Assembly: GCA_937872175.1 (NCBI GenBank)
Contig: CALMPI010000030.1
Location: 9,273-73,272, forward strand
Reading direction: 5' to 3'
DNA from: an uncultured Flavobacteriales bacterium
GTDB taxonomy: Bacteria > Bacteroidota > Bacteroidia > Flavobacteriales_F > PHOS-HE28
Length of the DNA stretch: 64,000 bases
The notes under the pieces were generated by a model. It made no database searches. It had not been told where the DNA came from and saw only the letters and a list, made by a program, of their open reading frames with translations. This document shows, piece by piece, positions 6,645-55,006 of this stretch; position 1 is the stretch's first letter, and every line of letters begins with the position of its first letter. A program made the position numbers and the translations under genes.

Positions 6645-7631
6645 ATGCGCATTCCGCTCTTCTTCCTCGCGTGCCTCGCCGCACTGGGCGTTCACGCCAC
6701 CATCCACCGCGTGAACAACACCGGCATCGATGCCGACTTCACCGCATTGCAGGTGGCGCACGACGCGGCTGTTGATGGGGACACCCTCCATGTGGAGCCC
6801 AGCGGCACCAGCTATGGATCGTGCACCTTCATCAAGCCCTTGGTGGTCATCGGGCCGGGCTACTTTCTCTCGTTGAACGCAGGCTTGCAGGCCAATGCCG
6901 GTACAGCGATCACGGGGGCGCTGGTGTTCGAGGCCGGGTCTGAAGGATGCGTGGTGAGCGGCTTGGATGTGCAGGGACCGACCCAGGTGAAGGCCGGCTT
7001 CGTGCGCATTGAGCGGTGCCGGTTCTCAGGCGGCGGCATGGACCTGCATATCGCCTACAATTTCCCCGGGCTCAGCCTGTCGGGGATCGTGGTGAACGGA
7101 TGCCATGTGGCGAATACACTGAACGTGGGGGCGAATGGAAGTACGGTCCTCGACGTGACCATCAGCAACACCTATGCGCGGACGCTCAACCTTGCGAACG
7201 GCAGCGGCAACTCCGGTGAGGTCTTGAACTGCTACCTGGCCGGCAGTGGTACCACGGCCCTCTTCGGTGCCGCGGGTTACACGGTGACCAACTGCATCCT
7301 GGGGCCCCTGGTCTCTCCATCCGCTGCTGCGTTCGCCAACAACATCTTCGCCGGCGCTCCTGTGCCCGCCACCAATGGCAATGTGCTCAATGCGGACCTC
7401 GGCACCGTGTTCGTGGGCGGTTCCGGGGACGCGCAGTATCAATTGGCTGCGGGCTCAGTGGCCATCGGCGCAGGGTCGGGTGGTGTGGACTGCGGCCTGT
7501 TCGGTGGCGCGGAGCCCTACACGCTCAGCGGCATCCCACCGGTACCGAGCATCTTCTCCCTGACCGCACCCACCAGCACCGACCAGGGCACGCCGCTGCA
7601 GGTCACCATCGGTGCGCGCGCCAACGATTGA
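6645..7631 (+). CDS. Secreted parallel beta-helix protein without a T9SS CTD
   Basis: Signal peptide, then IHRVNN..ADF..LQ.AHD...GDTLHVE; Asn/Gly-rich beta-helix rungs; VDCGLFGG..PY.LSGIP near the end; terminates VTIGARAND. Confidence 0.75.
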   Translation: MRIPLFFLACLAALGVHATIHRVNNTGIDADFTALQVAHDAAVDGDTLHVEPSGTSYGSCTFIKPLVVIGPGYFLSLNAGLQANAGTAITGALVFEAGSEGCVVSGLDVQGPTQVKAGFVRIERCRFSGGGMDLHIAYNFPGLSLSGIVVNGCHVANTLNVGANGSTVLDVTISNTYARTLNLANGSGNSGEVLNCYLAGSGTTALFGAAGYTVTNCILGPLVSPSAAAFANNIFAGAPVPATNGNVLNADLGTVFVGGSGDAQYQLAAGSVAIGAGSGGVDCGLFGGAEPYTLSGIPPVPSIFSLTAPTSTDQGTPLQVTIGARAND

Positions 7632-7635
7632 TCCC

Positions 7636-8391
7636 ATGGCACGCGACATCCTCCTTCCCTTCTCGGTGGTGCTCGCCATGGGGGCCTCTGCGCAGGACCT
7701 TCAGCGTGGTGAGTACTTCCTCGATGTCGACCCGGGGTTCGGGAACGGCACACCGGTCACCTTCGCCCAGGCGCAGGAGGTGTCGCTGCCGGTCTCCGTC
7801 GATGTGAGCGCCCTTGCGCCCGGACCCCATGTGCTGGGGGTGCGCATGATCGACGATGCGGGCGATTGGGGCCTCACCAACCGCCGCTACTTCATGGTGA
7901 GGAGCATGGCCACCGGTGGCGATATCGTGCGGTTCGAACACTTCCTTGACACGGATCCAGGCTTCGGCAACGCCACGGCGCTCCCGGCAGGCCCCGCGCC
8001 CGAGGTGAGCGGCCTGTTGATGGACGTGCTCACCGATGGCCTTTCCGCCGGGCCGCACACCCTGTTCGTGCGGTCACTGTCATCCACGGGCGCATGGTCG
8101 CTCACCAACGCGCAGGTGTTCAATGTGGCCGTCGGCATCGAGGAGCTGAACGCATGGGGCATCATGGCCGGACCGAGCCCACTTCGCGACGAATTGGTGC
8201 TGCAACGCAACTCCGGGAATGAGGTGATCGATATAGGCCTGATCGACGCGCAGGGCAGAGGTCTTCAGGGGACAAGATGGCTGGGCGATCGCCTGGTGCT
8301 GCCCGTGCATGCGCTTGCGGCGGGCAACTACCTGTTGGTGCTTCGCTCGAGTGAACGTGCACCGCTGGTATTGAAGCTGTTGAAGGAGTAA
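7636..8391 (+). CDS. T9SS type A sorting domain protein with two (E/H)YF.D.DPG.GN Ig-like repeats
   Basis: Signal peptide; repeats EYFLDVDPGFGNG and EHFLDTDPGFGNA; CTD-like end (GPSP..D.L....IDAQGR....LAAGNYLL....KLLKE). Confidence 0.8.
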   Translation: MARDILLPFSVVLAMGASAQDLQRGEYFLDVDPGFGNGTPVTFAQAQEVSLPVSVDVSALAPGPHVLGVRMIDDAGDWGLTNRRYFMVRSMATGGDIVRFEHFLDTDPGFGNATALPAGPAPEVSGLLMDVLTDGLSAGPHTLFVRSLSSTGAWSLTNAQVFNVAVGIEELNAWGIMAGPSPLRDELVLQRNSGNEVIDIGLIDAQGRGLQGTRWLGDRLVLPVHALAAGNYLLVLRSSERAPLVLKLLKE

Positions 8392-8458
8392 GGTCCCGCC
8401 GACCGCTCGGGCTCACCGGCTCTTTGCGCATCGGTCTCCTTCTGGCGATCTTGTGGCG

Positions 8459-10237
8459 ATGCGTACCGGCCTGCTGCTCCTTCAGATCATGCTGCTCGCG
8501 TGCGGGCGCCAGGGTTACGCACAAGCGGGCCACCTGCAGGCCCTGCGGGCTGCCGGCAAGTTCGATTCGCTTGAGATCGAGACGCGCGCCCTGCTCGCGG
8601 CGCATGCCGAGCCGGACGAGGCACGCTACGACGCCCTCTACCACCTCGCCTTCGCCCGCAGCGGAATGGATGACCCTGCGGATGCGCTGCGCAACGGCCA
8701 GGAGGCCCTGCTGATCGCCCGTGACCTGAAGGACAGCATCCGCATCATGGGCTCGCTGTACCAGCTCGTGAAGTTCAACGTGGAAGCGCGGCATTACGAG
8801 GAGGCCGACCGCCTGCGGTACGAGCTGCTGGCGCTGGCAAAGGTCTATGGCAAGGATGCCCGGCAATTGGCGCTGGCGCACAACGCCGTGGGCAGCCTGC
8901 ACAGCCGCGAGCTGCGACACGACTCTGCGGAGCATCACTACCGGGAAGGCCTTCGGGTGATGGGCGATGCGGATGAGCCACTGGTCCGTCTGGCGCTGAT
9001 CGGGAATCTGGCCGGGACATTGGGTGAGACCGGCCGGCATGCGGAAGCGATCGCCCTGCACCGGCAGGCCTTGGCCTTGGTGGACAGCGCGGATCTGTCC
9101 AACCGAGCCTGGTCGCTGCGCACCCTGGCCCAATCACTGATCCACGCCGGGCGGTACAAGGAGGCCCTCGCGACGATGCACGAGGGTGACTCGCTCAACC
9201 GGCTCGGTGGCAATGCGCTCGACCTGGCCATCGACTTCGCCGAGCTGCGCGCCGACGCGCTCGATTCGCTGGGTGACCACCGCGGCGCGTACGCCATGGT
9301 GAAGCTCGCGCGCGACCTGCAGGACACCCTGTTCGCACGAAGCCTGGATGAGCAATACCTCGAATTGGAGAAGCGGTTCGAGACGCGGCTGAAGGAGGAG
9401 GAGATCCAGCGGTTGGATGCGGAAGCCCGCGAACGCGAGGAGCGCCTGCGCGTGCGCAACGTGCAACTGTACGGAAGCCTGGCGCTCGCCATGCTCGCGC
9501 TCGGAGCGGCGGCGCTGGTGTGGCGCAACCTGCGGGAGAAGCGGAGGTATTCGGCGACGCTTGAGCGGCTCAATGCCGAACTGAAGGACCAGAAGGCGCG
9601 CATCGAGGAGATCAACCGGCTGCTGCAGCTGAAGGTGCTGCGCACGCAGATGAACCCGCACTTCATCTACAACTGCCTGCATGCCATCGGCAACCTGGTG
9701 CGCCGCGGCGATGCCGTGGGCGCGGCCAGCTACCTCGACGGCTTCGCCCGTCTGCTGCGCATGGTGCTCGACCACAGCGTGAAGGACCGGGTGCCCTTGA
9801 GCCAGGAGATGGATCTCCTGCGCCAATACCTGAAGCTCGAATCCCTGCGCTTCGCGGATGGACTGGACTACGAGGTGGATGCCGAGCCGAGCTTGCTGGA
9901 GGAGGATGATGTGGTGCCCGCCCTGGTGGTGCAGCCCTTTGTGGAGAACGCCATCTGGCATGGCCTGGCCACCAAGGAGGGTACGAAGCGCGTGAAGGTG
10001 CGCTTCACCGAGCGCCAGGGTCGCGTGGTGTGCTCGGTGGAGGACAACGGCGTGGGCCGCAGCGCCGCACCGAGGCGCGCACATGCCGACGGCAGCCCGA
10101 GCATGGGCCTGCAGCTCACCAGCGAGCGCCTGCAGCTGCTCACCTTTCGAATGCAGGAGCAGGGGCGGATCACCTTCACCGACCTCTTGGAGAACGGTGC
10201 ACCTTCAGGAACGCGCGTCGATGTGGTGCTGGGCTAA
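8459..10237 (+). CDS. TPR-containing sensor histidine kinase, LytS/His_kinase type
   Basis: Extracytoplasmic TPR-like helices, TM, QMNPHFIYNCL H-box, VQPFVENAIWHG, EDNGVG and SMGL. Confidence 0.92.
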   Translation: MRTGLLLLQIMLLACGRQGYAQAGHLQALRAAGKFDSLEIETRALLAAHAEPDEARYDALYHLAFARSGMDDPADALRNGQEALLIARDLKDSIRIMGSLYQLVKFNVEARHYEEADRLRYELLALAKVYGKDARQLALAHNAVGSLHSRELRHDSAEHHYREGLRVMGDADEPLVRLALIGNLAGTLGETGRHAEAIALHRQALALVDSADLSNRAWSLRTLAQSLIHAGRYKEALATMHEGDSLNRLGGNALDLAIDFAELRADALDSLGDHRGAYAMVKLARDLQDTLFARSLDEQYLELEKRFETRLKEEEIQRLDAEAREREERLRVRNVQLYGSLALAMLALGAAALVWRNLREKRRYSATLERLNAELKDQKARIEEINRLLQLKVLRTQMNPHFIYNCLHAIGNLVRRGDAVGAASYLDGFARLLRMVLDHSVKDRVPLSQEMDLLRQYLKLESLRFADGLDYEVDAEPSLLEEDDVVPALVVQPFVENAIWHGLATKEGTKRVKVRFTERQGRVVCSVEDNGVGRSAAPRRAHADGSPSMGLQLTSERLQLLTFRMQEQGRITFTDLLENGAPSGTRVDVVLG

Positions 10238-10246
10238 CTTGTGGCC

Positions 10247-10984
10247 ATGATCTCCGCCCTGCTCATCGACGATGAGGTCCAGGCCCGCGATCACCTGCGG
10301 GCACGACTGGCCGAGGTGGCGCCAGAGGTGCAGCTTCGGGACGAGGCCACCAACATCGTGGACGGTGCCGCATTGATCGCAGCGCATCAGCCGCAGCTCG
10401 TCCTCCTCGATGTGGAGATGCCCGGTGGCGATGGCTTCGAGCTGCTGCGCAGGCTCGGCCATTGGGACTTCGACGTCATCTTCACCACGGCCCACCAGCA
10501 CTACGCCATCCAGGCCATCCGCTTCAGCGCGCTCGACTACCTGCTGAAGCCCGTGCAGGCCGATGAGCTGCGCGCCGCCATCGACCGGCACATGGAGCGG
10601 AAGGGTGCCGCGCCGGCGGAGGTGCAGCAGGGCTTCCTCGCCAACGTCGCGCAGCGCGATGAACAGGCTCTCAGGCTCACCCTTACGCATGCCGGACGCA
10701 CGCACGCCGTGGCTCCCGAGCAGATCGCCTGGTGCCAGGCCGCGGATAACTACACTCATCTTCATCTCGCCGATGACCGTCGCTTCATCAGTGCGCGCAC
10801 GTTGAAGGATTACGATGAGATGCTCGCGCCCTTCGGCTTCATCCGGGTGCACAAGAGCGCCCTGGTGAACCGCCGCCATGTGGACGGGCTCGATGCCGAG
10901 GGCCGGGTGCGGCTGCGCAACGGGGTGCGCGTGGAGGTGAGCCGCAGGCGTCTGGACGACGTGGCCCGGGAGTTGCGCCCCTGA
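10247..10984 (+). CDS. LytTR family response regulator (REC-LytTR)
   Basis: IDDE, LLDVEMP, DYLLKP, AADNYT and RVHKSALVN motifs; 10 nt after the kinase stop. Confidence 0.95.
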   Translation: MISALLIDDEVQARDHLRARLAEVAPEVQLRDEATNIVDGAALIAAHQPQLVLLDVEMPGGDGFELLRRLGHWDFDVIFTTAHQHYAIQAIRFSALDYLLKPVQADELRAAIDRHMERKGAAPAEVQQGFLANVAQRDEQALRLTLTHAGRTHAVAPEQIAWCQAADNYTHLHLADDRRFISARTLKDYDEMLAPFGFIRVHKSALVNRRHVDGLDAEGRVRLRNGVRVEVSRRRLDDVARELRP

Positions 10985-11072
10985 CCGCAGCCTCGGTCCC
11001 TTGCCGTTGCCTCGATCGGGCCACGCCGATCGGTGCGTGCGCGTGTATTTCGCAGGGCCAACACGCCTTGCC

Positions 11073-12836
11073 ATGTCCCACATCATCGAACAGGCCTTTC
11101 GGGCCATCTGTGCAGAACGCGCTTCAGCCTACGTCATCGCAGGCGTTCTTTGTACCGGTTGGGGAACCGCCACCGCGCAATCGTTGGAATGGGCAAGGGC
11201 ATTCGGCGGCTCCGCGAACGACAAGGGCTTTTGCGTCGCCACAGATGACGCTGGCAATGTGTACACTTCCGGCGTCTTCATCGGGGTCGTGGATATGGAT
11301 CCAGGAGCGGGCGTGAGCACCTTGACCGCGACAGGCAATTCGGACCACTTCGTGCAGAAGCTCGATGCATCCGGGGATTTCATCTGGGCCGTCCACTTCG
11401 CCGGCGCCAGCGCCTCTGCAGGCGAGGGTACTCCGGTCTCGGTGGATCCATGGGGGAACGTACTGGTGGCCGGGACCTTCACGAACACCGTCGATCTGGA
11501 TCCCGGGCCCGACACCAGCGAGTTCAGCTCGGTCGGTGGCGCTGATGTATTCGTGGTGAAGCTGGATGCTTCCGGCGGGCTCATCTGGGCGCGCTCATGG
11601 GGTGGTGCTTCCGGCAATGGAGACAATGTGTACGCGATCGCCTGTGACTCCGCTGGGAATGTGATCACTACAGGCACCTTCTGGGGGATAGCGGACCTCG
11701 ACCCGGGCCCTGGTGTGGTCAACCTCGGTGTTGCAGGGCAAGCGAGCGATGTCTTCGTGCAGAAGATGGACGCCTCAGGGAACCTTCTCTGGGCGCGGGG
11801 CTTCGGTGGGATCTCCGGCGATCAACCCGGCTCCGTGCGCATTGATAGGGCAGGGAACATCCTTGCGGTGGGGAGATTCCAGGAGACGGTCGACTTCGAC
11901 CCCGGGGCTGGGATCCATGAACTGGTCAGCGCAGGGCTTTACGATGCCTTCATACAAAAGCTGGACGCCGATGGCGAATTCGTCTGGGCCCGGCGGATCG
12001 GTGGTGATTCGTTCGACTTCGGCAATGCGGTCGCTTTGGATGATCAGGACGATGTGCTGGTCACCGGTTCCTTCTTCGGCTTCGTGGACCTCGATCCGGG
12101 GACCGGCTCCGATACGCTTTATTCCGGCGGTGATGTCGCCGGCTTCGTACTGAAGCTGGCCGCGGACGGATTCTATCAATGGGGACGGTCCTTGGGCAAG
12201 GTCGACCCCGATGCGATCCTCGTTGATGCGGATGGGCGGGTGGTCACCTCGGGCGACTTCTCCCAGTCGGTGGACTTCGATCCCGGCCCCGGAACGGGCT
12301 ACCTGGATTCGGAGGGCGCCGGTGATATCTTCCTCCAGAGGATGGATGGATCCGGCATTTTCATTTCGGCGCAACGATTCGGTGGATCACTGGATGAATC
12401 GGCCGGGCAGAGCATGGCACTGGCCCCATCCGGCGCCCTACTGATGACCGGTACGTTCCGAGGCACGGTGGATCTCGATCCCGGACCAGGGACCAATACC
12501 ATCGTCTCCTCCGGATTCCAGGACGTACTGGTGATGAAGCTCGCAGGGTCCTCGTCCGGTATGGCAGATCTGGAGAATGTCGATGCATTGCAGGTTCTTC
12601 CCAACCCGGCCAACGACCGTGTGCGGATCGAAGTGGATGACACGCTGATCGGCGAACGAGCGACCATCGCGCTCTTCGATGCCACCGGCAGACGGGTGCT
12701 CGCCGAGGAGAACAGGGCCCTGGCCACGCTGACCGAGATCGCGCTGCCGGCGCAGCTGCATGAAGGCGTGTACGTGTTGGTGCTGGGTGCCGAAGGTCGA
12801 GCAGCAAGGAGCGCGCGGGTGGTGGTGAAGCGATAG
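11073..12836 (+). CDS. SBBP-repeat beta-propeller protein with T9SS type A CTD
   Basis: Repeated units D..GN....G.F...VD.DPG.G.....G..D.F..KLD..G...WA; CTD LPNPAND.V....FDATGR...GVYVL...VVVKR. Confidence 0.88.
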   Translation: MSHIIEQAFRAICAERASAYVIAGVLCTGWGTATAQSLEWARAFGGSANDKGFCVATDDAGNVYTSGVFIGVVDMDPGAGVSTLTATGNSDHFVQKLDASGDFIWAVHFAGASASAGEGTPVSVDPWGNVLVAGTFTNTVDLDPGPDTSEFSSVGGADVFVVKLDASGGLIWARSWGGASGNGDNVYAIACDSAGNVITTGTFWGIADLDPGPGVVNLGVAGQASDVFVQKMDASGNLLWARGFGGISGDQPGSVRIDRAGNILAVGRFQETVDFDPGAGIHELVSAGLYDAFIQKLDADGEFVWARRIGGDSFDFGNAVALDDQDDVLVTGSFFGFVDLDPGTGSDTLYSGGDVAGFVLKLAADGFYQWGRSLGKVDPDAILVDADGRVVTSGDFSQSVDFDPGPGTGYLDSEGAGDIFLQRMDGSGIFISAQRFGGSLDESAGQSMALAPSGALLMTGTFRGTVDLDPGPGTNTIVSSGFQDVLVMKLAGSSSGMADLENVDALQVLPNPANDRVRIEVDDTLIGERATIALFDATGRRVLAEENRALATLTEIALPAQLHEGVYVLVLGAEGRAARSARVVVKR

Positions 12837-12850: not shown

Positions 12851-14098
12851 ATGAGGTACCGGCCCCTCCTTTTCGTTGTGCTGTTCGCAGCCTGTTCCTC
12901 ACCCAGGAAGGAGGCGCCTGAACACACCCTCCCCCCCGAATGGGCGCCGCACGAAGCCGTCTGGTTCACCTACACCGGTATCGCCATCGACACCGTGCTG
13001 GACCGGATGCTCATGGAGCTCGATACAACGACGCTCGCGGTCTGCGTCATCGATGGGGACAGCATCGCGCAGCGGATCCGCGCACGGTGGGACAGCCTGG
13101 GAATCGCGCCGGACCGCTACCGCGTGGAGATCGCCGTGGACAGCCTGCTCTCGCCCGTGGTGCGCGATGCAGGTCCGATCTTCCTCCGCAAACCCGATGG
13201 AACGCTCGCCGTGCTGGATGCCGATTGGAATTACTACGGCGACCTCGACAACCTGGTCGGTTCGCCGGACCATCTGCTCGCCTTCGAGGATAGCTTTCCC
13301 ACCATGCTGGCGCGAAGAATGGGGCTGCCTGTGGTGCACAGCGACCTGGTGATCGAAGGCGGAGCCGTGGAGGTCAACGGCGCCGGAGTGCTCCTGCAGG
13401 TGGAGGCCGTGACGATGCAGCGCAACCCCGGATGGAGCAGGGACAGCATGGAGCATGAGCTGAAGCGGGTGCTCGGCGTGCGCGACATCATCTGGCTGAA
13501 GGAAGGGCCCGCCGATGACATGTGGTACCTCGAGCCCCGCATCCACGGCAACGTCTTCAACCAGGGAACCGGCGGGCATGTGGACGAGTTCTGCCGTTTC
13601 GTGAACGACAGCACCGTGCTGCTGGCCTGGCCCGATGAGGCCGACCTCACGGACAGCGTGCAGCTCATCACCGGTCAGCGGATGGACGTGAACCTGCGCA
13701 TCCTCGAGCGGTTCCGTGACCGAGAAGGCCGTGCGCTGAACATCATCAAGGTGCCCACGCCGGATACCGAGTTCCACGACCACGTGTTGACCTCGCGGCG
13801 CAGCTATGACCGAATGCTGATGATGCGCTATGAGGACCTGCACGAAGGCGACAGCATCCGCTACATCCCGGCAGCGAGCTACCTCAACTTCCTGATCACG
13901 AACGGACGTGTCTTCGCACCCGCGTATTGGCACGAAGGCAAGCCATCATCCATGAAAGAGAAGGATGCGCGAGTGCTCGAGGTGCTGAACAAGCTGTTCC
14001 CCGACCGTTCGGTGGTGCAGGTGGATCCGCGCGCGATCAACTGGCGGGGTGGTGGGGTGCATTGCTGGACACAGCAGCAGCCGTTGGTGAAGGAATAG
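12851..14098 (+). CDS. Agmatine/peptidylarginine deiminase family lipoprotein
   Basis: Lipobox LFAAC, LPPEWAPH, RDAGP, EGGAVE.NG.G, GHVDEFCRF, SYLNFLI.N and the catalytic GGGVHCWTQQ. Confidence 0.9.
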   Translation: MRYRPLLFVVLFAACSSPRKEAPEHTLPPEWAPHEAVWFTYTGIAIDTVLDRMLMELDTTTLAVCVIDGDSIAQRIRARWDSLGIAPDRYRVEIAVDSLLSPVVRDAGPIFLRKPDGTLAVLDADWNYYGDLDNLVGSPDHLLAFEDSFPTMLARRMGLPVVHSDLVIEGGAVEVNGAGVLLQVEAVTMQRNPGWSRDSMEHELKRVLGVRDIIWLKEGPADDMWYLEPRIHGNVFNQGTGGHVDEFCRFVNDSTVLLAWPDEADLTDSVQLITGQRMDVNLRILERFRDREGRALNIIKVPTPDTEFHDHVLTSRRSYDRMLMMRYEDLHEGDSIRYIPAASYLNFLITNGRVFAPAYWHEGKPSSMKEKDARVLEVLNKLFPDRSVVQVDPRAINWRGGGVHCWTQQQPLVKE

Positions 14099-14114
14099 AC
14101 CGACCTTCGGTGCG

Positions 14115-19105: not shown

Positions 19106-19127
19106 TGGTCCATTCAACCTTCTTCCC

Positions 19128-30279: not shown

Positions 30280-30281
30280 GC

Positions 30282-44391: not shown

Positions 44392-44479
44392 GGCGATCGC
44401 ATGGTTCATGTCTCAAAGGAAGGGAGATCACCTCGCGCAGGCATCGTGCGGAACAGGTCGCATTTCCGCAACTTGCGCC

Positions 44480-46275: not shown

Positions 46276-46345
46276 CGTTCACCCGCCGGTGGGCCGCGTT
46301 CACCCGATCGGGCTGGACCGCTGGCGACGGCTTCGGGGATCTTGC
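46276..46345 (+). promoter_or_regulatory. Putative LytTR direct-repeat operator plus -7-like box
   Basis: CGTTCACCCG at 46276 and 46297 (the latter CGTTCACCCGATC, identical to 27020 and 27041); GATCTTGC at 46338. Confidence 0.65.
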
Positions 46346-46363: not shown

Positions 46364-49300
46364 ATGTCCCGCCCCTGTCGCCCCCTGTCCGTCGCTGTGC
46401 TGCTTTCCGCCTGCACCCCTGCGCTGGCACAGCTCAGTGGCACGTACACCATCGACGGGAGCGGAGCCGGCGATTACCTCTCCTTCGGCGCGGCCATCGA
46501 TGACCTGAACGCGCTTGGTGTGAACGGCCCGGTGCTGTTCGAGGTGACCGACGGATCTTACTCCGGCCGTGCGACCATCGGGGCGGTGGCCGGTGTGTCC
46601 GCCGTGAACACGGTGACCTTCCGCGGGCAAAGCCTCGACAGCTCGTTGGTGACCTGGAGCGAGGCCAGCTACACCTCCATCCCCTCGCTGGGCCACAACA
46701 GCCTGCTGCGCCTGGACGGTGCCCGGTACATCACACTGGAGCACATGACCCTGCAACGCACGGGCACCGACCAGTATGCGCACGTGGTGGTGATCGACGG
46801 GTCCACGGCACATGTCACCGTGCGGCACTGCAGGCTGCGCGGCCCCACGAACTTCACCGCCGCGGTGCAGGACCGCAACGTGATCCACTGCGCCAGCGGC
46901 ACCGTGCAGGCGGACATCCGGTTCGAGGCCGATCGCATCGAGCATGGCAACCATGGCCTCTATTGGTGGGCCACTGCGGGCGAGGCCGATGAAGTGAGCC
47001 TGGAGGGCTGCGATCTCCACGAGGCGCGCGTGTGGTTCCAAGGGATCACCGGACAGGTGCATTTGCTGGGCAACACCTCCTTCCACACCCAGGCAGCGAA
47101 TTGTGTGACCGCCCTGAGCCTGAGCGGGGATGTGGACATCAGCCGCAACACGCTGCGCTCCGTTGGGCTCTACACCACCCTGGCCCTGCAGCAGCTCGCC
47201 GGGACAGCTGCCCAGCCCATCCGAGTGGCGAACAACATGGTGATCGGGAGCAACAGCACCGTGAGCCTGGTGTTCTGTGACCGGGTTGATCTGTTGCACA
47301 ACAGCGTGTCGGGTGCAGGCAACATCTCCAATGGGAACACGGCCATCCGGATGTTGAACAACAGCTGGTACCGCGACCTGGGCTACGCGCTCACCGTGGG
47401 TGCCACGGCCACCGTGATCGCTTCGGACCACAACTGCTACCACACGGTGTCCGGTGCCGCCGTCAGCTGGTCCGGTGGCCACACGGCCCAGGCCTCCCTT
47501 ACGGCAGCCACCGGTCTCGACGCCAACAGCCTCTTCATGGACCCGGTCTACGTGGACCCGCTCACCGACCTCCACATCCAAACCACCTCCCCTTGCAGTG
47601 GCACGGGGACGCTCGCGGCGGGCGTGACCGATGATCGGGATGCGGAGCTGCGACCGCGCCCCGCGCTGAGCGACCCGGACATCGGAGCGGATGAAACGGA
47701 CGAGTACTGCTTCACCCTCAACGGGACCTACACCATCGGCCCGTCCGTCGGTGCGGACTTCCCCACGTTCAGCGCGGCCGTGCTGAAGCTGAGCATCTGC
47801 GGCATCACCGGGCCGGTCCTCTTCCTGGTGGAGGACGGGGTGTACACCGAGGCCATCAGCCTGCCGGCCATCACCGGGACGTCCTCCACCAACACGGTGA
47901 CCTTCCGCGGCAATGGGGCGGACAGCACGGCGGTCACCCTGCGCTATCCCGCCACGGCCACCTCAGCGCCCATCGATCACGTGGTGCGCATGGAGGGCGC
48001 CGATCACGTGGCCTTCGAGCGCATCACCCTGGAGCGGTACGGCGTGGCGTCCTATGGGACCATCTTCCGCTTCCGTTCCGGTGGTGGCACGCCCAACGAC
48101 CCCTCCACGCACATCCGCTTCACCGGCTGCCGTTTCCTGCGCACGGGTGCGATCGGCTTCAACAGCGTGATGGTCAGCGCGGCCAATTCCCCGGCCCTCA
48201 ACGAAGTGGGTACGGTCTTCGAGGGGAACTACTTCAACGGTGGGGTCTATGCGTTCGGGAACCCGGGCAATGCGGGGGATGAGTGGACCATCACGAACAA
48301 TGTGGTCGAGAACGTGCAAGGTGGCATCACCGTGTTCCAGGCTTCGTCCGTCACCATTTCCGGGAACCGGGTCACCATGCTCGGGAACAGCCTGTTCCCG
48401 GCCATCAAGGTGACCTGCGGCTGCGATGCGGCGATCGATGACAACCGGGTGCTGACCAGGGGGACCGCCCTGGAGCTCACCGTGGCCGCCACCGCCGGTG
48501 CTCCGGCCTGGGTCACGAACAACACCCTCATTTCGGACCTGTTCGCCGGGCACGCCCTGCGGATCCTCGGCCTGAACAACCACGTTCGGATCGTGCACAA
48601 CTCCGTGAGCGCATACTCCGGCCGCGCGCTGTTCGCGAGCGCCGCCGCTGGTTCGTCGGACCTCTGGCTGCTGAACAACATCCTGGCGAGCCGCTTCAGC
48701 CATCCGCTGGATGCCCCCTCCGGGGCCGCGTTCAGCGACGTGCGCCACAACCTGCTGCAGAAGGCGGCCAGCACCCTGGCCACGTGGAACGGCGCCTCCG
48801 TCACCACCCTGACCGCGCTGCAGTCCGTGAGCGGCATGTTCGCCAACAGCTTCGCCGGCGCTTCCTGCTATTTCGATCCAGCGAGCGACCTCCACTCCTA
48901 CAGCATGGAGGCCGATGGCGCCGCACTGCCCTTCGCCCTCTTCCCCACGGACATGGATGGCGAGCCGCGGAGCACCACCACACCGGACATCGGCGCGGAT
49001 GAGTTCCAACCGCAATTGTGGTCGGCCACCGATGATCTCTGCGTGCCCGCCGACCCCATCACGAGCACCGGCACGGGTACCGACCAATGGATCTACAAGG
49101 ACCGCAAGGTGGTGGCGCGCTTCAACGACAACGGGCAGCCCCTGGGGATCGTGCAGTTCGGCGTGTTCCTCAACAGCGGTCCGGTGCGCCAGAGCCTCAT
49201 CGGCCAGCACTACCTGGACCGCAACTGGCACTTCACCACCTCCCTGCCCATGTCCGGCACCGCCATCGTCCGGCTCTTCCACAGCGCCGATGAGTTCGCC

Positions 49301-50068
49301 GACTATGCCGCGGCCGACCCCGTGGTGAACGTGTATGCCGATGCCGGCGTGGCCCACTACGCCGGGCCCATGGAGGACTGCGCGCTGCTGAACAACCCGG
49401 CCGGCAACGTGTGGATGCCCACCTTCCCGGCATCCCCTGCGCTGGAGCCGCGCATACAGTCCACCGGTGGCACCCATGGCTACACCGCCCTGCTCGGCGC
49501 CGACGGCGAGCTCTACATCACCATCATGGGTGCTCCGCTGCCCGTCGAACTCCTCACCTTCACCGGACATCGCATCAACGAGCGCGAAGTGCGGCTCGAC
49601 TGGTCCACCGCCACCGAGCACAACAACGCGGGCTTCGAAGTGTGGCGCATGATCGAGGGCGAGGACGACTTCACCGAAGTGGGCTGGGTGGACGGCGAGG
49701 GCGACAGCCAGCAGCGCACGGACTACATCCATGTGGATGCGAACGCCACCGGCCGCCAGAGCTACTACAAGCTCAGGCAGGTGGATCATGATGGGCAGCA
49801 GGTGTGGACGGCCGTGGTGCCGGTGGCGGGTGCGCAGGCCGGCGCGCAGCTGGTGGCGTATCCGAACCCGGCCACGGACCACGTGCGGGTGGAGGGAGCG
49901 ACCGGCGAAGCACGCATGGCGCTCTTCGATGCCGCGGGCCGCATGGTGCGTGGATGGTCACCGGCGCCCCGCATCGACGGCCTGGCCGGGCTGCACCGCG
50001 GCTGCTACACCCTGGTCGTGGAGCGCGCGCCCGGGGCGAGGAGCGTGCTGCGCGTCATGCTGCAGTGA
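46364..50068 (+). CDS. Large secreted protein with two tandem beta-helix modules, PLPVEL/FN3-like domain and T9SS CTD
   Basis: Two modules, each starting L.GTYTI and ending DIGADE; PLPVELLTF..LDWSTATEHNN.GFEV; YPNPA CTD. Confidence 0.88.
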   Translation: MSRPCRPLSVAVLLSACTPALAQLSGTYTIDGSGAGDYLSFGAAIDDLNALGVNGPVLFEVTDGSYSGRATIGAVAGVSAVNTVTFRGQSLDSSLVTWSEASYTSIPSLGHNSLLRLDGARYITLEHMTLQRTGTDQYAHVVVIDGSTAHVTVRHCRLRGPTNFTAAVQDRNVIHCASGTVQADIRFEADRIEHGNHGLYWWATAGEADEVSLEGCDLHEARVWFQGITGQVHLLGNTSFHTQAANCVTALSLSGDVDISRNTLRSVGLYTTLALQQLAGTAAQPIRVANNMVIGSNSTVSLVFCDRVDLLHNSVSGAGNISNGNTAIRMLNNSWYRDLGYALTVGATATVIASDHNCYHTVSGAAVSWSGGHTAQASLTAATGLDANSLFMDPVYVDPLTDLHIQTTSPCSGTGTLAAGVTDDRDAELRPRPALSDPDIGADETDEYCFTLNGTYTIGPSVGADFPTFSAAVLKLSICGITGPVLFLVEDGVYTEAISLPAITGTSSTNTVTFRGNGADSTAVTLRYPATATSAPIDHVVRMEGADHVAFERITLERYGVASYGTIFRFRSGGGTPNDPSTHIRFTGCRFLRTGAIGFNSVMVSAANSPALNEVGTVFEGNYFNGGVYAFGNPGNAGDEWTITNNVVENVQGGITVFQASSVTISGNRVTMLGNSLFPAIKVTCGCDAAIDDNRVLTRGTALELTVAATAGAPAWVTNNTLISDLFAGHALRILGLNNHVRIVHNSVSAYSGRALFASAAAGSSDLWLLNNILASRFSHPLDAPSGAAFSDVRHNLLQKAASTLATWNGASVTTLTALQSVSGMFANSFAGASCYFDPASDLHSYSMEADGAALPFALFPTDMDGEPRSTTTPDIGADEFQPQLWSATDDLCVPADPITSTGTGTDQWIYKDRKVVARFNDNGQPLGIVQFGVFLNSGPVRQSLIGQHYLDRNWHFTTSLPMSGTAIVRLFHSADEFADYAAADPVVNVYADAGVAHYAGPMEDCALLNNPAGNVWMPTFPASPALEPRIQSTGGTHGYTALLGADGELYITIMGAPLPVELLTFTGHRINEREVRLDWSTATEHNNAGFEVWRMIEGEDDFTEVGWVDGEGDSQQRTDYIHVDANATGRQSYYKLRQVDHDGQQVWTAVVPVAGAQAGAQLVAYPNPATDHVRVEGATGEARMALFDAAGRMVRGWSPAPRIDGLAGLHRGCYTLVVERAPGARSVLRVMLQ

Positions 50069-50198
50069 CGGTGGCCCCCCGACGGAGGCTGTGCGGGCGC
50101 CGCGCGCGATGCATCGATCGCGGCAGCGGCCTCGAAGCGCGTCCTTGACCGGTGCGTTCCTTTGTCCGGGCCGGTCTTCACAGGCCTTCATGGGCGGC

Positions 50199-50268
50199 CG
50201 TTCGGCCCGATCGCCTGGTCGTTCACCCCAGATCGCGCACGCCGTTCGCGGCGGCCTGTTTAGGTTGC
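50199..50268 (+). promoter_or_regulatory. Putative LytTR direct-repeat operator plus -7 promoter box
   Basis: CGTTCGGCCC (50199), CGTTCACCCC (50220) and CGTTCGCGGC (50243); TAGGTTGC at 50261. Confidence 0.6.
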
Positions 50269-50291
50269 GGCGACCCGAACCACACGCACCC

Positions 50292-52475
50292 ATGCGCACA
50301 GCACGCCACTTCGCCACGCTTCCGGCCATCCTTCTGCTCCTGCACGCACCCGCCCAATCGCTCGACTGGGCGCACCAGGTGGGTTCCACGCAGGCGGATG
50401 TATCCCTCGCGGTCACCACCGGTGCCGCCGCCTCCGTGATCACCGTGGGCTACTTCGCGCTCACGGCGGACCTGGACCCCGGGGCGGGCACCTTCACCGT
50501 CACCAGCAACGGCAGCAGCGATGTGTTCATCCAGGCGTTGGACAGTGCAGGCGGCTTCCTGTGGGGCGGCTCCTTCGGCGCGGGTGGCGCCGACCAGGCC
50601 ATGGGCGTGGCGGCCGATGCGGCGGGCAATGTGTATGTGACCGGGCGCGTGAGCGGCACCGTGGACATCGACCCCACGGCCGGCACGGATGTGCGCGTCA
50701 CCGCCAACACCAGCTTCGATGTGTTCGTGGTGAAGCTCAGCCCCGCCGGCGACTACCTGTGGGGCCGCCTGCTCGGCGGCAACGGCAACGACTTCGGCTA
50801 CGACGTGGCCGTGGACGGCGACGGCAACTGCATCATCGGCGGGGTGCTCGGCTTCACCAGCGACATCGACCCCGGACCCGGCGTGGTGAACGCCGGCGGC
50901 AACGGCCAGCAGGACGCCTTCGTGCTGAAATTGAACGCCGCCGGCGACTTCGTGTGGGGCTTCGCCGTGGGCGGCACCGCGAACGACCTCGCGTATGGCG
51001 TGGCGGTGGATGGCGCCGACAACGTGTTCGTCTGCGGCGAGTTCCGCAACACGGTGGACTTCGACCCGAGCGCTGGCGTGCTCAGCCGCACCAGTGGCGG
51101 ATCGGACGATGCCTTCCTGCTGAAGACGAACAGCAGCGGCGCCGTGCAATGGGCCTTCGGCTTCGGCAGCACCGGCAGCGAGCGCGCGCAGGCCGTGGCC
51201 GTCGGGCCCGATGGGGCGCCCGTCCTCACCGGCCGTTTCACCAGCACCGTGGACTTCGATCCGGGGGCCGGCAGCTTCCTCCTGGCCGGCGACTTCAGCG
51301 AGCCCGCCTTCGTGGCCAAGCTGAACAGCGATGGCACCTTCGCCTGGGCCTTCATGCTCAAGAGCTTCCTCAACGAAGGCATGGACGTGGCGGTGGACAG
51401 CCTCAACAACGCGTACGTGTGCGGCAGCTTCGGCAACATCACCAACAACCCGCTGGACCTCGACCCCGGCACGGGCGTCACCCCCATCAGCGCCAACGGC
51501 GGTGGCGATGCCTTCCTTGCCAGCTACGGCCCGAGCGGCGGCTTCCTCTGGGGTTTCGGCCTGGGCAGCGCGCAGAACGACATCGCGCATGCCGTCGCGC
51601 TCGGCACGCGCGGGCGCATCCAGCTCGCCGGCGTCTTCCTGCAAACGCTCGATGCCGACCCCGGGCCCAATACGGCGTTGCTGGTTCCGCTCGGCTTTTC
51701 TGACGGCTTCACCATCCAATACACCAAACCCGATTGCGCCGGCGTCTTCGTCCGCCTCAAGGCCATCCTGGGCGCCGTGCACACACCGGCCGACTTCCTG
51801 GCCATGTCCGATCCGCTCCGGACGGCCGGGCTCATCCCCCTGGAGGAGCCGTACACGGCCATGGGCTTCACCCTGGAACAGCCCGCCGCGACCACTCCTC
51901 TGGTGTTGAGCTGGACCCTTTCCAGCGCCATCGTGGACTGGGTGCTGGTGGAGCTGCGCGATCCCGTGGACCCCACCCAGGTGCTGGCCCGCAGGGCGGC
52001 CCTGTTGCAGCGCGATGGCGATGTGGTCGAAGTGGACGGCGTGGCGCCCGTCGGCTTCTGTCTCCTCCCGGGCGACTACCATGTGGCGCTCCGCCACCGC
52101 AATCACCTGGGCGTGATGACCGCTGCGCCCGTGGCCCTGGGCAACACCCCGCTCACCATCGACCTCACCCTGCCGGCCACACCGGTCTTCGGCACCGATG
52201 CCCGCAGGGATGTGAACGGCACCCAGGTGCTCTGGCCCAATAACACCCGCTTCGACAATACGGTGAAATACACCGGAGCGGCCAATGACCGGGATGCCAT
52301 CCTCGTGCGCATCGGCGGGATCATCCCCACCGCCACCGTCGCGGGCTACTGGCCCGAGGATGCCAACATGGATGGCGTGGTGAAGTACACCGGTGCGGCC
52401 AACGACCGGGACCCGATCCTGACGACCATCGGACCGCCGCTGCCCACCGGCACCCGCACCGAACAGCTGCCCTGA
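50292..52475 (+). CDS. SBBP-repeat beta-propeller protein with C-terminal dockerin-like region (paralog of 19128-21299)
   Basis: Same architecture: QSLDWAH.., propeller repeats, DWVLVELRD, RHRNHLG, two VKYTGAANDRD repeats, ends R.EQLP. Confidence 0.86.
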   Translation: MRTARHFATLPAILLLLHAPAQSLDWAHQVGSTQADVSLAVTTGAAASVITVGYFALTADLDPGAGTFTVTSNGSSDVFIQALDSAGGFLWGGSFGAGGADQAMGVAADAAGNVYVTGRVSGTVDIDPTAGTDVRVTANTSFDVFVVKLSPAGDYLWGRLLGGNGNDFGYDVAVDGDGNCIIGGVLGFTSDIDPGPGVVNAGGNGQQDAFVLKLNAAGDFVWGFAVGGTANDLAYGVAVDGADNVFVCGEFRNTVDFDPSAGVLSRTSGGSDDAFLLKTNSSGAVQWAFGFGSTGSERAQAVAVGPDGAPVLTGRFTSTVDFDPGAGSFLLAGDFSEPAFVAKLNSDGTFAWAFMLKSFLNEGMDVAVDSLNNAYVCGSFGNITNNPLDLDPGTGVTPISANGGGDAFLASYGPSGGFLWGFGLGSAQNDIAHAVALGTRGRIQLAGVFLQTLDADPGPNTALLVPLGFSDGFTIQYTKPDCAGVFVRLKAILGAVHTPADFLAMSDPLRTAGLIPLEEPYTAMGFTLEQPAATTPLVLSWTLSSAIVDWVLVELRDPVDPTQVLARRAALLQRDGDVVEVDGVAPVGFCLLPGDYHVALRHRNHLGVMTAAPVALGNTPLTIDLTLPATPVFGTDARRDVNGTQVLWPNNTRFDNTVKYTGAANDRDAILVRIGGIIPTATVAGYWPEDANMDGVVKYTGAANDRDPILTTIGPPLPTGTRTEQLP

Positions 52476-54299
52476 ATGCGCCGCATGCCCGGGTCGATGG
52501 TGGCCGTCCCCTCCGGGTGGCGTGCCATCGTGCTGCCGTGGGTATTGCTCGGCGCCCTGTCCCTTCCCGCCCAGGTGGACAGCCTGGAACGCGTGCTGGC
52601 CGGGCTGCCGCAGGACACCTCGCGACTGCGGGTGCTGCGTGCGTTGTTCCATGCCGAGGTCTTCCGCAGGCCCGCCCGGGCCTCGACGCATGCCGAGGCC
52701 TTCGCCGCGCTGGCCGATGCCGGCGGCACCGCGCGTCAGCGCGCTCAGGCGCAGGCCATGCTGGGCCAGGCGCTCTACGTGCGTGGCGATGGCCTGCGCG
52801 CCCTGCCGCACTTCCAACGGTCACTGGCCACCTATCGCGCCGAGGGCCTCATCGGGGAGGCCGGCCTGGTGCAGGCCAACATCGCCAGCATCCTGGCCGA
52901 TGCCCGCCATTGGAACGAGGCCCGCATGGCGTATGCGCGCGCGCTGGCCGACCTCGAACAGGCCGGCGAGCACGAATGGGCCGCCGGAGCGGAGGGTGAA
53001 CTGGCCCAGGTGCTCCAGCTGCTGGGGCGGCACGACAGCGCCGCGCTGCACTACCGGCGTTCGGCCGAGGCCCTCGAACGCCACGGCATGGCCCGCCATG
53101 CGCACGAGATCCTGCTCGACGAGGCCGGTGCCCTCTTCCGCTCGGGCCGCACCACGGAGGCCGTCGACCGGTTCCGCGCCCTTGACAGCGCATCCGTCGG
53201 TGTCCCCGCACCCCTGGTCCTCATCCGGCTCCTCCTGCGCTCGGGCCGCTGGTCGCTCGCGCACGACCAGCCCGCCGACGCGGACAGCCTCCTGCGCCGC
53301 GCCCTGCGCCTGGCCGTGGACGGGGGCTTCGTGCTGGAACGCACGCTGGTGCACGAGGCCCTGAGCGACCTGGAGGTGGCCCTTGGCCGACCGGACAGCG
53401 CGCTGGCCCAGCTGCGCCGCTTCATCCAATGGAACGACACCCTGGACGCGCGCTCCGATGCCGCCGCCATCCTCGCCCTCGAACGCCGCGCCAGCGACGC
53501 GCTCTCCAAGGCCGAGCTGGAGCACCGCGCCGCCGTCATCGCCCGCCAGCGCACGCAGCTCGTCCTGGTGGGCGCGGCGGTGCTCCTTCTGGCCGCCATC
53601 GCCTTCGCCCTGGCCTTCGTGCTGCGACGCGAGCGCCGCCATCGCAACGCCCTGGCCGACCGCACCCGCGCGCTCGAGGATGCCCTTCAGGCCAAGGGCC
53701 TCCTGCTGCGCGAGATCCACCACCGGGTGAAGAACAACCTGCAGATCGTGAGCGGGTTGCTGCGCGCGCAGCTCCGCGCCATACGCGATCCCGCCGTGCG
53801 AGCGCCCGTGCGCGACGGCCTCGACCGCATCCGCAGCATGAGCCTCATCCACCAGGACCTCTACCACCACGACGGCGTGCAGGGCATCGAGATGGCCCCC
53901 TACGTGGAACGCCTTGCGCAAGGCCTGCGGCGAAGCCATGCCGTGGACGAGGACCACGTGGCCATCCACCTCGACGTGGCACCCCTGTGGCTCGATGTGG
54001 ACACGGCCATCCCGCTCGGTCTCGTCATCAACGAGCTCATCACCAACGCCCTCAAGCATGCCTTCCCCGACGGGCGCAAGGGCCGCATCGAGGTGAGCCT
54101 GCACCACGAGCGCGATGGTCTGCTCCTCACCGTCGCCGACGATGGCGTGGGCCTGCCCGAGCCCCTTCCCGCAGGGGCCGATGGCTCCGGTCTTGTGCTC
54201 GTGCGCACCTTCGCGGAGAAGCTCAAGGCCGAACAACACGTGCGCACCGGACCGGGCACCACCGTACGCCTGCGCATACACCTGCCGCCCCGAAGCTGA
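52476..54299 (+). CDS. TPR-containing sensor histidine kinase (HisKA_2 type)
   Basis: AQVDSL after the signal region, TPR-like helices, TM, EIHHRVKNNLQ, NELITNALKHAF and DDGVG; exact start uncertain. Confidence 0.9.
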   Translation: MRRMPGSMVAVPSGWRAIVLPWVLLGALSLPAQVDSLERVLAGLPQDTSRLRVLRALFHAEVFRRPARASTHAEAFAALADAGGTARQRAQAQAMLGQALYVRGDGLRALPHFQRSLATYRAEGLIGEAGLVQANIASILADARHWNEARMAYARALADLEQAGEHEWAAGAEGELAQVLQLLGRHDSAALHYRRSAEALERHGMARHAHEILLDEAGALFRSGRTTEAVDRFRALDSASVGVPAPLVLIRLLLRSGRWSLAHDQPADADSLLRRALRLAVDGGFVLERTLVHEALSDLEVALGRPDSALAQLRRFIQWNDTLDARSDAAAILALERRASDALSKAELEHRAAVIARQRTQLVLVGAAVLLLAAIAFALAFVLRRERRHRNALADRTRALEDALQAKGLLLREIHHRVKNNLQIVSGLLRAQLRAIRDPAVRAPVRDGLDRIRSMSLIHQDLYHHDGVQGIEMAPYVERLAQGLRRSHAVDEDHVAIHLDVAPLWLDVDTAIPLGLVINELITNALKHAFPDGRKGRIEVSLHHERDGLLLTVADDGVGLPEPLPAGADGSGLVLVRTFAEKLKAEQHVRTGPGTTVRLRIHLPPRS

Positions 54300-55006
54300 T
54301 GAAGCGCGACCTGCAGGTGTTGATCGTGGAGGACGAGCCCTTCATCGCCGAGGACCTCGCCACGATGCTCGGTGACCTGGGCCATGTCGTCAGCGGACGT
54401 GCGCGCGATGCCGAGGAGGCCCTGCATCTGCTTCGGTCGCGACCCCCGGACCTTGTGCTGCTGGACATCCGCCTGGGCGATGGACCGGACGGCTTCGCGG
54501 TGGCCGCATCGCTCCAGGAGCGCGGCATCCCCTTCCTCTACGTCACCTCCCATACCGATGCCGACACCCTCGCCCGCATGGGCGAGACCCGCCCGGCAGG
54601 CTTCATCCGCAAACCGTTCGATGAGGAGGACCTGCGCGCCCAGCTGGCCGTGGCCCTCACCCGCGCCGCGCCCACGGCTGCCGCCGACCTGTTCGTGCGC
54701 GACAAGGGCCGCCTGGTGCGCCTGCCCGTCAGCGAGGTGCTCTTCGCCGAGGCCGACGACAACTATGTGATCCTGCACACCGCCGAGCGCAGGCATGTGC
54801 TCGTGGCCACGCTGGCCCACATTCAGCAGCGGCTCGGTGCAACGGGCTTCGCACGGGTGCACCGCTCCTATCTGGTCAACCTCCACCGCGTGTCCGCCCT
54901 GCACGATGGGCATGTGCTCGTGGGTCCGCATCGGGTGCCCGTGGGCCGCACGCACCGCGATGCGTTGAAGGCGCGCCTGCGCATCGGGGGCACCGGCGAC
55001 CGGTGA
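54299..55006 (+). CDS. REC-LytTR response regulator
   Basis: TGATG coupling; VEDE, LLDIRLG, FIRKPFDE, FVRDKG, EADDNY and RVHRSYLV motifs. Confidence 0.94.
   Translation: MKRDLQVLIVEDEPFIAEDLATMLGDLGHVVSGRARDAEEALHLLRSRPPDLVLLDIRLGDGPDGFAVAASLQERGIPFLYVTSHTDADTLARMGETRPAGFIRKPFDEEDLRAQLAVALTRAAPTAAADLFVRDKGRLVRLPVSEVLFAEADDNYVILHTAERRHVLVATLAHIQQRLGATGFARVHRSYLVNLHRVSALHDGHVLVGPHRVPVGRTHRDALKARLRIGGTGDR

Follow-up and report, generated by a model that had tools for sequence, protein, structure and literature searches.

A probable clade-specific regulon of TPR-kinase/LytTR systems and variable surface proteins in an uncultured Flavobacteriales bacterium

FimS of Porphyromonas gingivalis is a TPR sensor kinase that controls fimbriae. 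Pairs of a TPR kinase and a LytTR response regulator belong to the most common and most poorly understood signalling systems in Bacteroidota, and literature searches on combinations of TPR, LytTR, SBBP and type IX secretion (T9SS) found no characterised example of them. LytTR regulators use two direct repeats of roughly 9 bp, separated by a spacer of 11 - 13 bp and located just upstream of the -35 element, and positive autoregulation has been described for them (PMC6193735); AgrA binds its direct repeats as a dimer (PMC4227749). The subject of this work is the 6.6 - 55 kb part of a 64-kb stretch of DNA (the window) from an uncultured activated-sludge Flavobacteriales bacterium. Genes for TPR kinases and LytTR regulators are interspersed here with genes for exported SBBP β-propellers and β-helix proteins (Table 1), several of which end in a T9SS type A C-terminal domain (CTD). 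With a probability of about 0.6, the region is a variable, clade-specific regulon in which ordinary TPR-kinase/LytTR systems drive variable surface proteins, and not one machine.

The LytTR regulators are very probably wired to the exported-protein genes next to them, because conserved paired repeats precede five secreted-protein transcription units. The motif GTTCRC-N15-GTTCRC occurs in its exact form three times in the window compared to 0.03 expected occurrences, and ten times compared to 1.43 if up to one mismatch is allowed. All exact pairs are intergenic, lie on the + strand and are found 60 - 76 nt before the start codons of secreted proteins. Such half-sites, in pairs or in threes and with a phase of 21 bp, are located upstream of SBBP723, unk445, BH1259 and SBBP914, and the half-site can be extended to C-GTTCAC-CCGATC. 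The pair that follows the LytTR1 gene has a different sequence and a phase of 19 bp, slightly shorter than the canonical LytTR spacing, and occurs once in the window compared to 0.01 expected. The geometry of the repeats fits that published for LytTR operators.

The repeats are retained in the nearest relatives of the window, which are assemblies titled 'MAG: Flavobacteriales bacterium' (metagenome-assembled genomes, MAGs); their loci are designated L081, L082 and so on. Repeats of the GTTCRC type occupy orthologous positions in L081 (at both triplets of SBBP, kinase and regulator genes), L082, L164, L165, L167 and, with one mismatch, L085, and six of the seven exact matches in the relatives' loci are at orthologous spots. 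The operator before unk445 is also present before its L167 orthologue, the operator before BH1259 is kept in L165 and L167, and the 19-bp-phase pair is kept in L169, L170 and L171 though the cargo gene downstream of it differs. No GTTCRC repeat was found upstream of the kinase-less SBBP genes of L166, L172 and L173. The clustering could in principle be a coincidence within a hypervariable neighbourhood, with repeats that do not serve as operators and regulators whose targets are elsewhere: the region is a mosaic among close relatives, and both two-component systems and CTD proteins are abundant in Bacteroidota. This is very unlikely, however, as the repeats are about 100-fold more frequent than expected by chance, have a strictly intergenic position with the correct orientation and a fixed distance to start codons, persist across genomes even where the flanking genes differ, and are missing where the two-component system is missing.

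The following scheme would connect these elements. The locus would contain four two-component systems, HK1/LytTR1, HK2/LytTR2, HK5/LytTR4 and the split HK4/LytTR3, each consisting of a periplasmic TPR sensor and a LytTR regulator. A periplasmic signal would make the kinase phosphorylate its regulator, and the regulator dimer would then bind the paired direct repeats (phased by 21 or 19 bp) immediately upstream of the neighbouring promoters, resulting in activation. One group of targets would be the regulators' own operons, whose first gene codes for an SBBP propeller that is exported and would be anchored by its X-dockerin-like tail. The two SBBP triplets look autoregulated, judging from the position of the repeats upstream of their operons, and the loop would be one of positive feedback. 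The other group would comprise the adjacent operons for T9SS-secreted β-helix and propeller proteins. The secreted proteins would be outputs, located at the surface or in the extracellular space and having their heads swapped by recombination, rather than ligands of the neighbouring sensors. That the regulators bind the repeats, that they activate transcription and that the SBBP proteins act as outputs are predictions from sequence. An output rather than a sensor role for the SBBP proteins is argued for by the existence of SBBP genes without a kinase, by the four tandem SBBP genes of L083 and by a replacement of propellers that is independent of the TPR domain.

The two triplets are built alike. 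SBBP723 homologues form a distinct family of proteins of about 720 amino acids in Flavobacteriales MAGs, and in 12 of the 15 modules that were read the SBBP gene is followed directly by the genes of a TPR-HisKA_2 kinase and a LytTR regulator. A row of four tandem SBBP genes lies before a single kinase gene in L083, the last of them adjoining it. The other three modules (L166, L172 and L173) have no kinase after the SBBP gene, their context being otherwise the same. HK1, HK2 and HK5 are each encoded directly upstream of their own LytTR gene, with junctions that overlap or nearly do so, and in the relatives the SBBP gene adjoins or overlaps that of the kinase. The second triplet (SBBP914-HK5-LytTR4) follows BH1259 in the window and in L165, and its orthologue in L081 (73, 76 and 83% identity for the three proteins) is located directly after the first triplet (SBBP723-HK2-LytTR2). 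The triplet therefore moves as a unit.

The propellers of the triplets have been replaced relative to close relatives. Between the second triplet of the window and that of L165, the propellers are 65 - 67% identical, compared to 94% for the β-sandwich, 97% for the tail and 95 - 96% for the adjacent TPR domain. For the first triplet and L082 the corresponding values are 67, 91, 92 and 90%. The reverse combination is found between the second triplets of L081 and L165, where the propellers are 92% and the TPR domains 70% identical. Nucleotide identity drops from about 90 - 93% to 54 - 83% exactly across the propeller-coding segment (window positions 19100 - 20690 and 50100 - 51690), while conservation is maintained over the signal peptide region and in the tail, the kinase and the regulator. 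The synonymous divergence (dS) of the propeller and the sandwich is 0.73 and 0.12, respectively, for the second triplet compared with L165, and 0.98 and 0.34 for the first triplet compared with L082. The raised dS over the propeller, together with a ratio of nonsynonymous to synonymous divergence (dN/dS) of 0.2 - 0.3, indicates recombinational replacement of the heads. Positive selection on point mutations in the propeller was considered and rejected in view of this low dN/dS and of a dS that is itself 3 - 6 times higher than the sandwich or flank value.

These data bear directly on the earlier note on this DNA, which had proposed one modular surveillance-and-secretion system extending over 48 kb, in which each TPR sensor detects its own cargo, or the target of that cargo, and auto-induces the cargo. 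Such a system would be in keeping with the high concentration of genes for TPR kinases, regulators and exported proteins in this region, with the repeats that connect regulators to cargo genes, and with the retention in L167 of the co-directional backbone LytTR3-unk445-CTD615-LytTRonly-BH-SBBP-HK5. The notion that the regulators serve neighbouring exported-protein genes has held, given the conserved repeats before SBBP723, unk445, BH1259, SBBP914 and the cargo gene in the slot after LytTR1. Auto-induction agrees with the repeats as far as the two triplets are concerned, but the idea that a sensor detects its own cargo found no support. A sensor dedicated to each cargo is argued against by the independent assortment of cargo head and TPR domain, by the association of the same HK1-LytTR1 pair with different cargo, and by the three relatives in which an SBBP gene has no kinase. 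Thus the independent shuffling of cargo and sensor among relatives that was named beforehand as evidence against the proposal is found for the functional head of the cargo. Furthermore, three of the six cassettes drawn in the note are not conserved as drawn: 6645-8391 and BH565 are insertions, and 36089-31609 lies inside the insertion at 30606-44409. The 13.7-kb insertion and the two smaller ones make up much of the 'array' and turn the region into a mosaic among relatives. A single system is therefore highly improbable.

The survey of gene neighbourhoods across Bacteroidota that the note had called for points the same way. It covered 80 genome loci of distant relatives of the HisKA_2 TPR kinases, and neighbouring CTDs were counted at 53 loci in other Bacteroidota. 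The pair of a TPR-HisKA_2 kinase and a LytTR regulator is common outside the clade, and the genes directly beside it are a heterogeneous set. Of 93 immediate neighbours, 5 have a type A CTD; among control genes five to six positions away, the type A CTD occurs in at most one of 132 and the type B CTD in two of 132, so that any T9SS signal occurs in at most 3 of 132. No SBBP or β-helix paralogue was found nearby in any of the 80 loci, and in L167 a TPR-HisKA_2/LytTR pair occurs without an SBBP gene. A 'cargo-kinase-LytTR' rule for all Bacteroidota was rejected, as SBBP and β-helix paralogues are absent nearby and neighbours with a CTD are rare.

The tail of the SBBP proteins is encoded at 20538-21299 and 51711-52475, has a length of about 245 amino acids and is strictly C-terminal. 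Residues ~476 - 723 of SBBP723 had no sequence match in Pfam or NCBIfam (even at E ≤ 1 in either) or in the PDB. In the AlphaFold2 (AF2) model of the full-length protein the tail has a predicted local distance difference test score (pLDDT) below 50, whereas an alignment of 82 tail sequences gave a confident fold with a pLDDT of 94.6 and a predicted template-modelling score of 0.91. The predicted fold consists of a β-sandwich and two dockerin-like Ca-loop repeats, and two D-x-N-x-D-G...NDRD..IL repeats are visible in the alignment. The best Foldseek matches of the tail are chains comprising an X-module and a type II dockerin, although these matches are weak (E 0.04 - 0.25, none at or below 1e-3). 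The tail ends in Q-[LVI]-P in 99 out of 100 cases. With a profile of the tail, 13,102 representative proteins are retrieved at E ≤ 1e-3, and their N-terminal regions are very diverse; the genes are often located in arrays with those of T9SS type A CTD proteins, and most of them are not beside kinase genes. The tail thus appears to represent a very large, unannotated C-terminal family with an X-dockerin-like predicted structure. Pfam matched no Cohesin domain in any scanned protein of the window, and a search for a cohesin partner by PDB sequence similarity gave nothing for BH1259, CTD615 or unk445. The propeller of SBBP723 resembles the propeller of CylK in Foldseek comparisons.

TPR domains bind proteins and peptides, often C-terminal peptides. 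The SBBP/X-dockerin protein, most plausibly its QLP tail or a released fragment, might therefore be a co-sensor or a ligand of the periplasmic TPR domain, and the operon would then constitute a protein-based loop for autoinduction or for reporting secretion, like luxPQ or the inducer-kinase-LytTR operons comCDE and plnABCD. The order of secreted product, kinase and LytTR regulator behind a LytTR-type repeat speaks for such three-component sensing, as does the adjacency or overlap of the SBBP and kinase genes. The tail is also as conserved as the kinase between orthologues (92 - 97%), and tail and kinase identities are correlated with a Spearman coefficient of 0.84. However, this correlation is expected from simple linkage. 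The tail occurs on more than 13,000 proteins, mostly away from kinases, and therefore cannot be a ligand specific to the module. Three genomes retain an SBBP-720 gene with no kinase beside it, the L167 pair does without an SBBP gene, and an SBBP paralogue accompanies none of the 80 distant kinase loci. Three-component sensing is thus unlikely. Its bold form, in which the TPR domain senses the protein itself, or the tail that export releases or displays, so that the operon is an autoinduction device or a sensor of 'surface-display load', is more doubtful still; if true, it would be a Gram-negative, T9SS-era counterpart of the peptide-pheromone systems of inducer, kinase and LytTR regulator, controlling surface propellers that are diversified by recombination.

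The regulon of ordinary two-component systems remains the preferred interpretation, although two observations count against it. The SBBP and kinase genes are joined tightly and often overlap, which is compatible also with a stoichiometric partner, that is, a co-sensor. In addition, the repeats were not detected as a pair in L083 or at the second triplets of L165 and L167.

The 6.6 - 55 kb region is a mosaic with a conserved core and not one system. The core consists of the two SBBP-kinase-LytTR operons, the split HK4/LytTR3 pair and HK1-LytTR1. In L165 and L167 a backbone of the order (HK)-LytTR3-unk445-CTD615-LytTRonly-(HK4)-BH1259-SBBP-HK5-LytTR4 is encoded entirely on one strand. The segments 30606-44409 and 25339-26973 are absent from this backbone and are therefore insertions. 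The former has a GC content of 58 - 63%, compared to 65 - 70%, and is missing from both L165 and L167. It encodes an OmpA protein, a CTD cargo protein, two LuxR regulators, a HisKA_3 TPR kinase, an S74 fibre, two CTD proteins, a CAAX protease and a Reg_prop kinase.

LytTR3 and HK4 have no partner beside them in the window. The L167 orthologue of LytTR3 (87% identity) is encoded directly after a TPR kinase (L167:8166-10001), and HK4 is 91% identical to that kinase in the DHp region, 46% in the TPR domain and 61% in the ATPase domain. The DHp region of HK4 is 54 - 59% identical to those of HK2 and HK5. The DHp region has an established role in the specificity of a kinase for its partner regulator, and on the grounds of the 91% identity HK4 and LytTR3 are probably a split pair. 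The low identity of the TPR domains suggests that the sensor domain has been exchanged on a conserved transmitter. The 3' end of an aldo/keto reductase (AKR) gene is directly repeated around the first triplet (18658-18957 and 24002-24301, 86% identity over 300 nt). Its second copy is a gene fragment situated just before LytTR3, at a site occupied in the relatives by a kinase gene and five further genes. The AKR repeat is the mark of a rearrangement in which LytTR3 lost the kinase next to it. LytTR3 was also considered as a remnant of a tandem copy of the first triplet, as the AKR repeat might hint, but this was rejected, as LytTR3 is 87% identical to the L167 regulator, which has another kinase, and only 51% identical to LytTR2.

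HK1 and LytTR1 form a well conserved pair, HK1 orthologues being 55 - 92% identical across many Flavobacteriales MAGs. In L169 and L170 the CitMHS gene is located directly 5' of the HK1 orthologue, and the two genes at 6645-8391 are therefore an insertion, outside the conserved unit. The first of these (6645-7631) encodes a protein without a CTD and the second (7636-8391) a protein with a weak type A CTD; no Pfam family was matched by either. As in the window, an exported protein is encoded 3' of LytTR1 in all three relatives that were read (L169, L170 and L171). In these the slot is occupied by a GBD_T9SS_assoc protein with a CTD (1241 amino acids) or by a DUF7948+SBBP protein (912 amino acids). 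A T9SS CTD match is found for the slot protein of L169 and L170; none is listed for L171. The slot is followed in the window by the genes of a PAD_porph lipoprotein (agmatine/peptidyl-arginine deiminase family) and a DUF418 membrane protein at 12851-15323, and likewise in L169 and L170, but not in L171. These genes may share a transcription unit with the slot cargo.

Table 1. Positions of kinases, regulators, exported proteins and putative operators in the window
Feature	Position	Strand	Basis
Two exported proteins, inserted between CitMHS and HK1	6645-8391	+	Signal peptides; synteny
HK1: signal peptide, periplasmic TPR, one transmembrane segment, LytS-type His_kinase (PF06580), HATPase	8453-10237	+	Pfam, N-terminal inspection
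LytTR1 response regulator, REC + LytTR (PF00072 + PF04397)	10241-10984	+	Pfam
Putative LytTR1 operator, paired direct repeat CCG[CT][AT]GCCTCG[AG]TC x2, 19-bp phase	10990-11016	+	Unique in window
SBBP β-propeller with T9SS type A CTD, fills slot after LytTR1	11073-12836	+	Pfam; TIGR04183 28.5 bits, cutoff 23
Putative operator GTTCAC-N15-GTTCGC, 21-bp phase, 64 nt before SBBP723 ATG	19038-19064	+	Motif search
SBBP723: signal peptide, 7-blade SBBP propeller (residues 22-474), X-module/dockerin-like C-terminal domain (residues ~476-723) ending QLP	19128-21299	+	AF2, Foldseek, Pfam, NCBIfam
HK2: periplasmic TPR + HisKA_2 kinase	21345-23150	+	Pfam, N-terminal inspection
LytTR2 regulator (PF00072 + PF04397); start overlaps HK2 stop (TGATG)	23150-23887	+	Pfam, junction inspection
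LytTR3, orphan regulator (PF00072 + PF04397)	24491-25231	+	Pfam
BH565, β-helix protein with type A CTD, inserted between LytTR3 and unk445 operator	25339-26973	+	Pfam; absent in L167
Putative operator before unk445, three GTTC[AG]C half-sites, 21- and 20-bp phase	27021-27067	+	Motif search
Putative operon unk445-CTD615-LytTR-only	27098-30599	+	Pfam, junctions; same order in L165, L167
unk445: exported 445-residue protein, family not recognised	27098-28435	+	Pfam
CTD615: 615-residue β-helix-like T9SS cargo	28432-30279	+	Pfam
LytTR-only protein, 105 residues	30283-30599	+	Pfam
Lineage-specific lower-GC block, 13.7 kb	30606-44409		GC, Pfam, synteny
REC-LuxR regulators	32703, 33552	-	Pfam
Weak TPR + HisKA_3 kinase	34230-36248	-	Pfam
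Propeller kinase with Reg_prop/Y_Y_Y	41257-44409	-	Pfam
HK4: orphan TPR + HisKA_2 kinase, probable LytTR3 partner	44480-46264	+	DHp comparison; Pfam
Putative operator GTTCAC-N15-GTTCAC before BH1259	46277-46303	+	Motif search
BH1259: 1234-residue β-helix T9SS cargo	46364-50068	+	CTD E 3e-4; 90% orthologue in L165
Putative operator before SBBP914, three half-sites (GTTCGG, GTTCAC, GTTCGC)	50200-50249	+	Motif search
SBBP914 (727 residues): SBBP723 paralogue, same X-dockerin-like tail	50292-52475	+	BLASTP
HK5: TPR + HisKA_2; ATG immediately after SBBP914 stop	52476-54299	+	Pfam, junction inspection
LytTR4 regulator (PF00072 + PF04397), TGATG overlap with HK5	54299-55006	+	Pfam, junction inspection

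The inventory of the region was obtained by Pfam and NCBIfam scans of all long open reading frames with high GC3 and by inspection of N-termini and transmembrane segments. The GC content of the window is 61 - 72%, and its sequence is present in activated-sludge metagenomes (DNA metagenomes and one marginal metatranscriptome). The gene orders given in the earlier note are physically present, and so are its five TPR kinases (starts 8453, 21345, 34230(-), 44480 and 52476), its one propeller kinase and its seven regulators, namely four REC-LytTR, one LytTR-only and two REC-LuxR proteins. Its counts of about 14 exported proteins and about 10 CTDs had to be revised to 16 proteins with predicted signal peptides and to seven or eight CTDs. 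For a T9SS type A cargo protein, a signal peptide and a C-terminal PF18962/TIGR04183 match were required. Seven proteins have the CTD at a Pfam E < 1e-3 (starts 11073, 25339, 28432, 31609(-), 38001, 38498 and 46364), and the eighth, weak one is that of 7636-8391 (E 0.19, with BLAST similarity to the CTD of 38001). Pfam and NCBIfam detected no type A CTD in SBBP723, SBBP914, 6645-7631 or 27098-28435. The triplet propellers at 19128 and 50292 carry the different C-terminal domain of about 245 residues instead. In the TPR kinases that were inspected, a signal peptide, about 320 residues of TPR, one transmembrane segment and the kinase core follow each other in this order. The TPR domain must therefore be periplasmic, since it and the signal peptide precede the single transmembrane segment.

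All-against-all BLASTP comparison of the window proteins resulted in four paralogue families: the SBBP propellers 11073, 19128 and 50292 (37 - 47% identity), the HisKA_2 TPR kinases HK2, HK4 and HK5 (35 - 38% over the full length), the regulators LytTR2, LytTR3 and LytTR4 (46 - 51%), and the N-terminal β-helix domains common to 25339, 28432 and 46364. Paralogy among the window genes is far above chance. In L165, L167 and L168, as in the window, the gene of the LytTR-only protein is the 3'-most one of the unk445-CTD615 operon, and no membrane inhibitor gene of the LytTR regulatory system type is adjacent to 30283-30599. Within the lower-GC insertion (36202-38480), a signal-peptide protein with a C-terminal Peptidase_S74 domain (endosialidase chaperone) overlaps a protein of 159 amino acids that is mostly T9SS CTD; no phage genes were found near it within the insertion. 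The gene at 16425-17747 encodes an exported protein with a thioredoxin fold, whose deiodinase/AhpC-like matches are weak (E about 3e-3), and in whose last 109 residues Pfam detected no CTD. Just outside the array, at 58798-62260 (-), a protein of 949 amino acids that consists almost entirely of TPR repeats adjoins a Crp-family regulator.

The locus yields operator motifs, four regulator-to-target assignments and one split kinase/regulator pair as testable predictions. In the surface proteins that would be driven by these systems, the exposed propeller heads recombine while the anchor, the sensor and the regulator stay fixed. Through the regulon, a tail family of X-dockerin-like type, with about 13,000 representatives, would also come under the control of two-component systems in bacteria of activated sludge.

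Several described systems share some of these properties. The tail, strictly C-terminal and predicted to consist of a β-sandwich and two Ca-loop/helix repeats, weakly resembles the X-module and type II dockerin (XDoc) of clostridial scaffoldins (C. thermocellum CipA). It differs from XDoc in that the match is weak (E 0.04), in having no Pfam Dockerin match, in its near-invariant QLP end, in its Bacteroidota hosts, and in that Pfam and PDB sequence comparisons found no cohesin in the window. In LuxP/LuxQ, TorT/TorS and HptA/HptS, as here, an exported protein, of the ligand-binding type, is encoded immediately upstream of the sensor kinase and is co-transcribed with it, which is a prediction in the present case. 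However, unlike these proteins, SBBP occurs also without a kinase and in up to four tandem copies per kinase, and exchange of its head does not depend on the sensor.

The HdrRM/BrsRM LytTR regulatory systems (PMC6193735) are similar in that a stand-alone LytTR-domain protein (30283-30599) is encoded in a locus with LytTR-type repeats. The window differs in having no adjacent membrane inhibitor gene, and its LytTR-only gene closes a cargo operon. FimS/FimR of P. gingivalis also comprises a Bacteroidota kinase with an extracytoplasmic TPR domain and has surface-protein genes as targets, but FimR is of the OmpR type, whereas the regulators described here are LytTR proteins, and the kinase cores belong to different families. 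The FimS equivalog NF053520 was not matched (23.3 bits compared to a cutoff of 600).

AgrCA of Staphylococcus aureus, ComDE of Streptococcus pneumoniae, PlnBCD and YpdAB share with the window a REC-LytTR gene directly after the kinase gene, two direct repeats with a phase of about 21 bp before the own operon and before neighbouring genes for exported products, and a secreted product encoded by the first gene of the operon. When compared with comCDE and plnABCD in particular, the window has first products of 723 and 727 amino acids and TPR kinases with one transmembrane segment, and Pfam found no ABC/C39 exporter among its proteins. The kinases are of the single-transmembrane HisKA_2 or PF06580 type with about 320 residues of periplasmic TPR, unlike the polytopic HPK10 peptide receptors of those systems, and the first gene encodes a 720-residue propeller instead of a peptide precursor, in a Gram-negative host with T9SS cargo.

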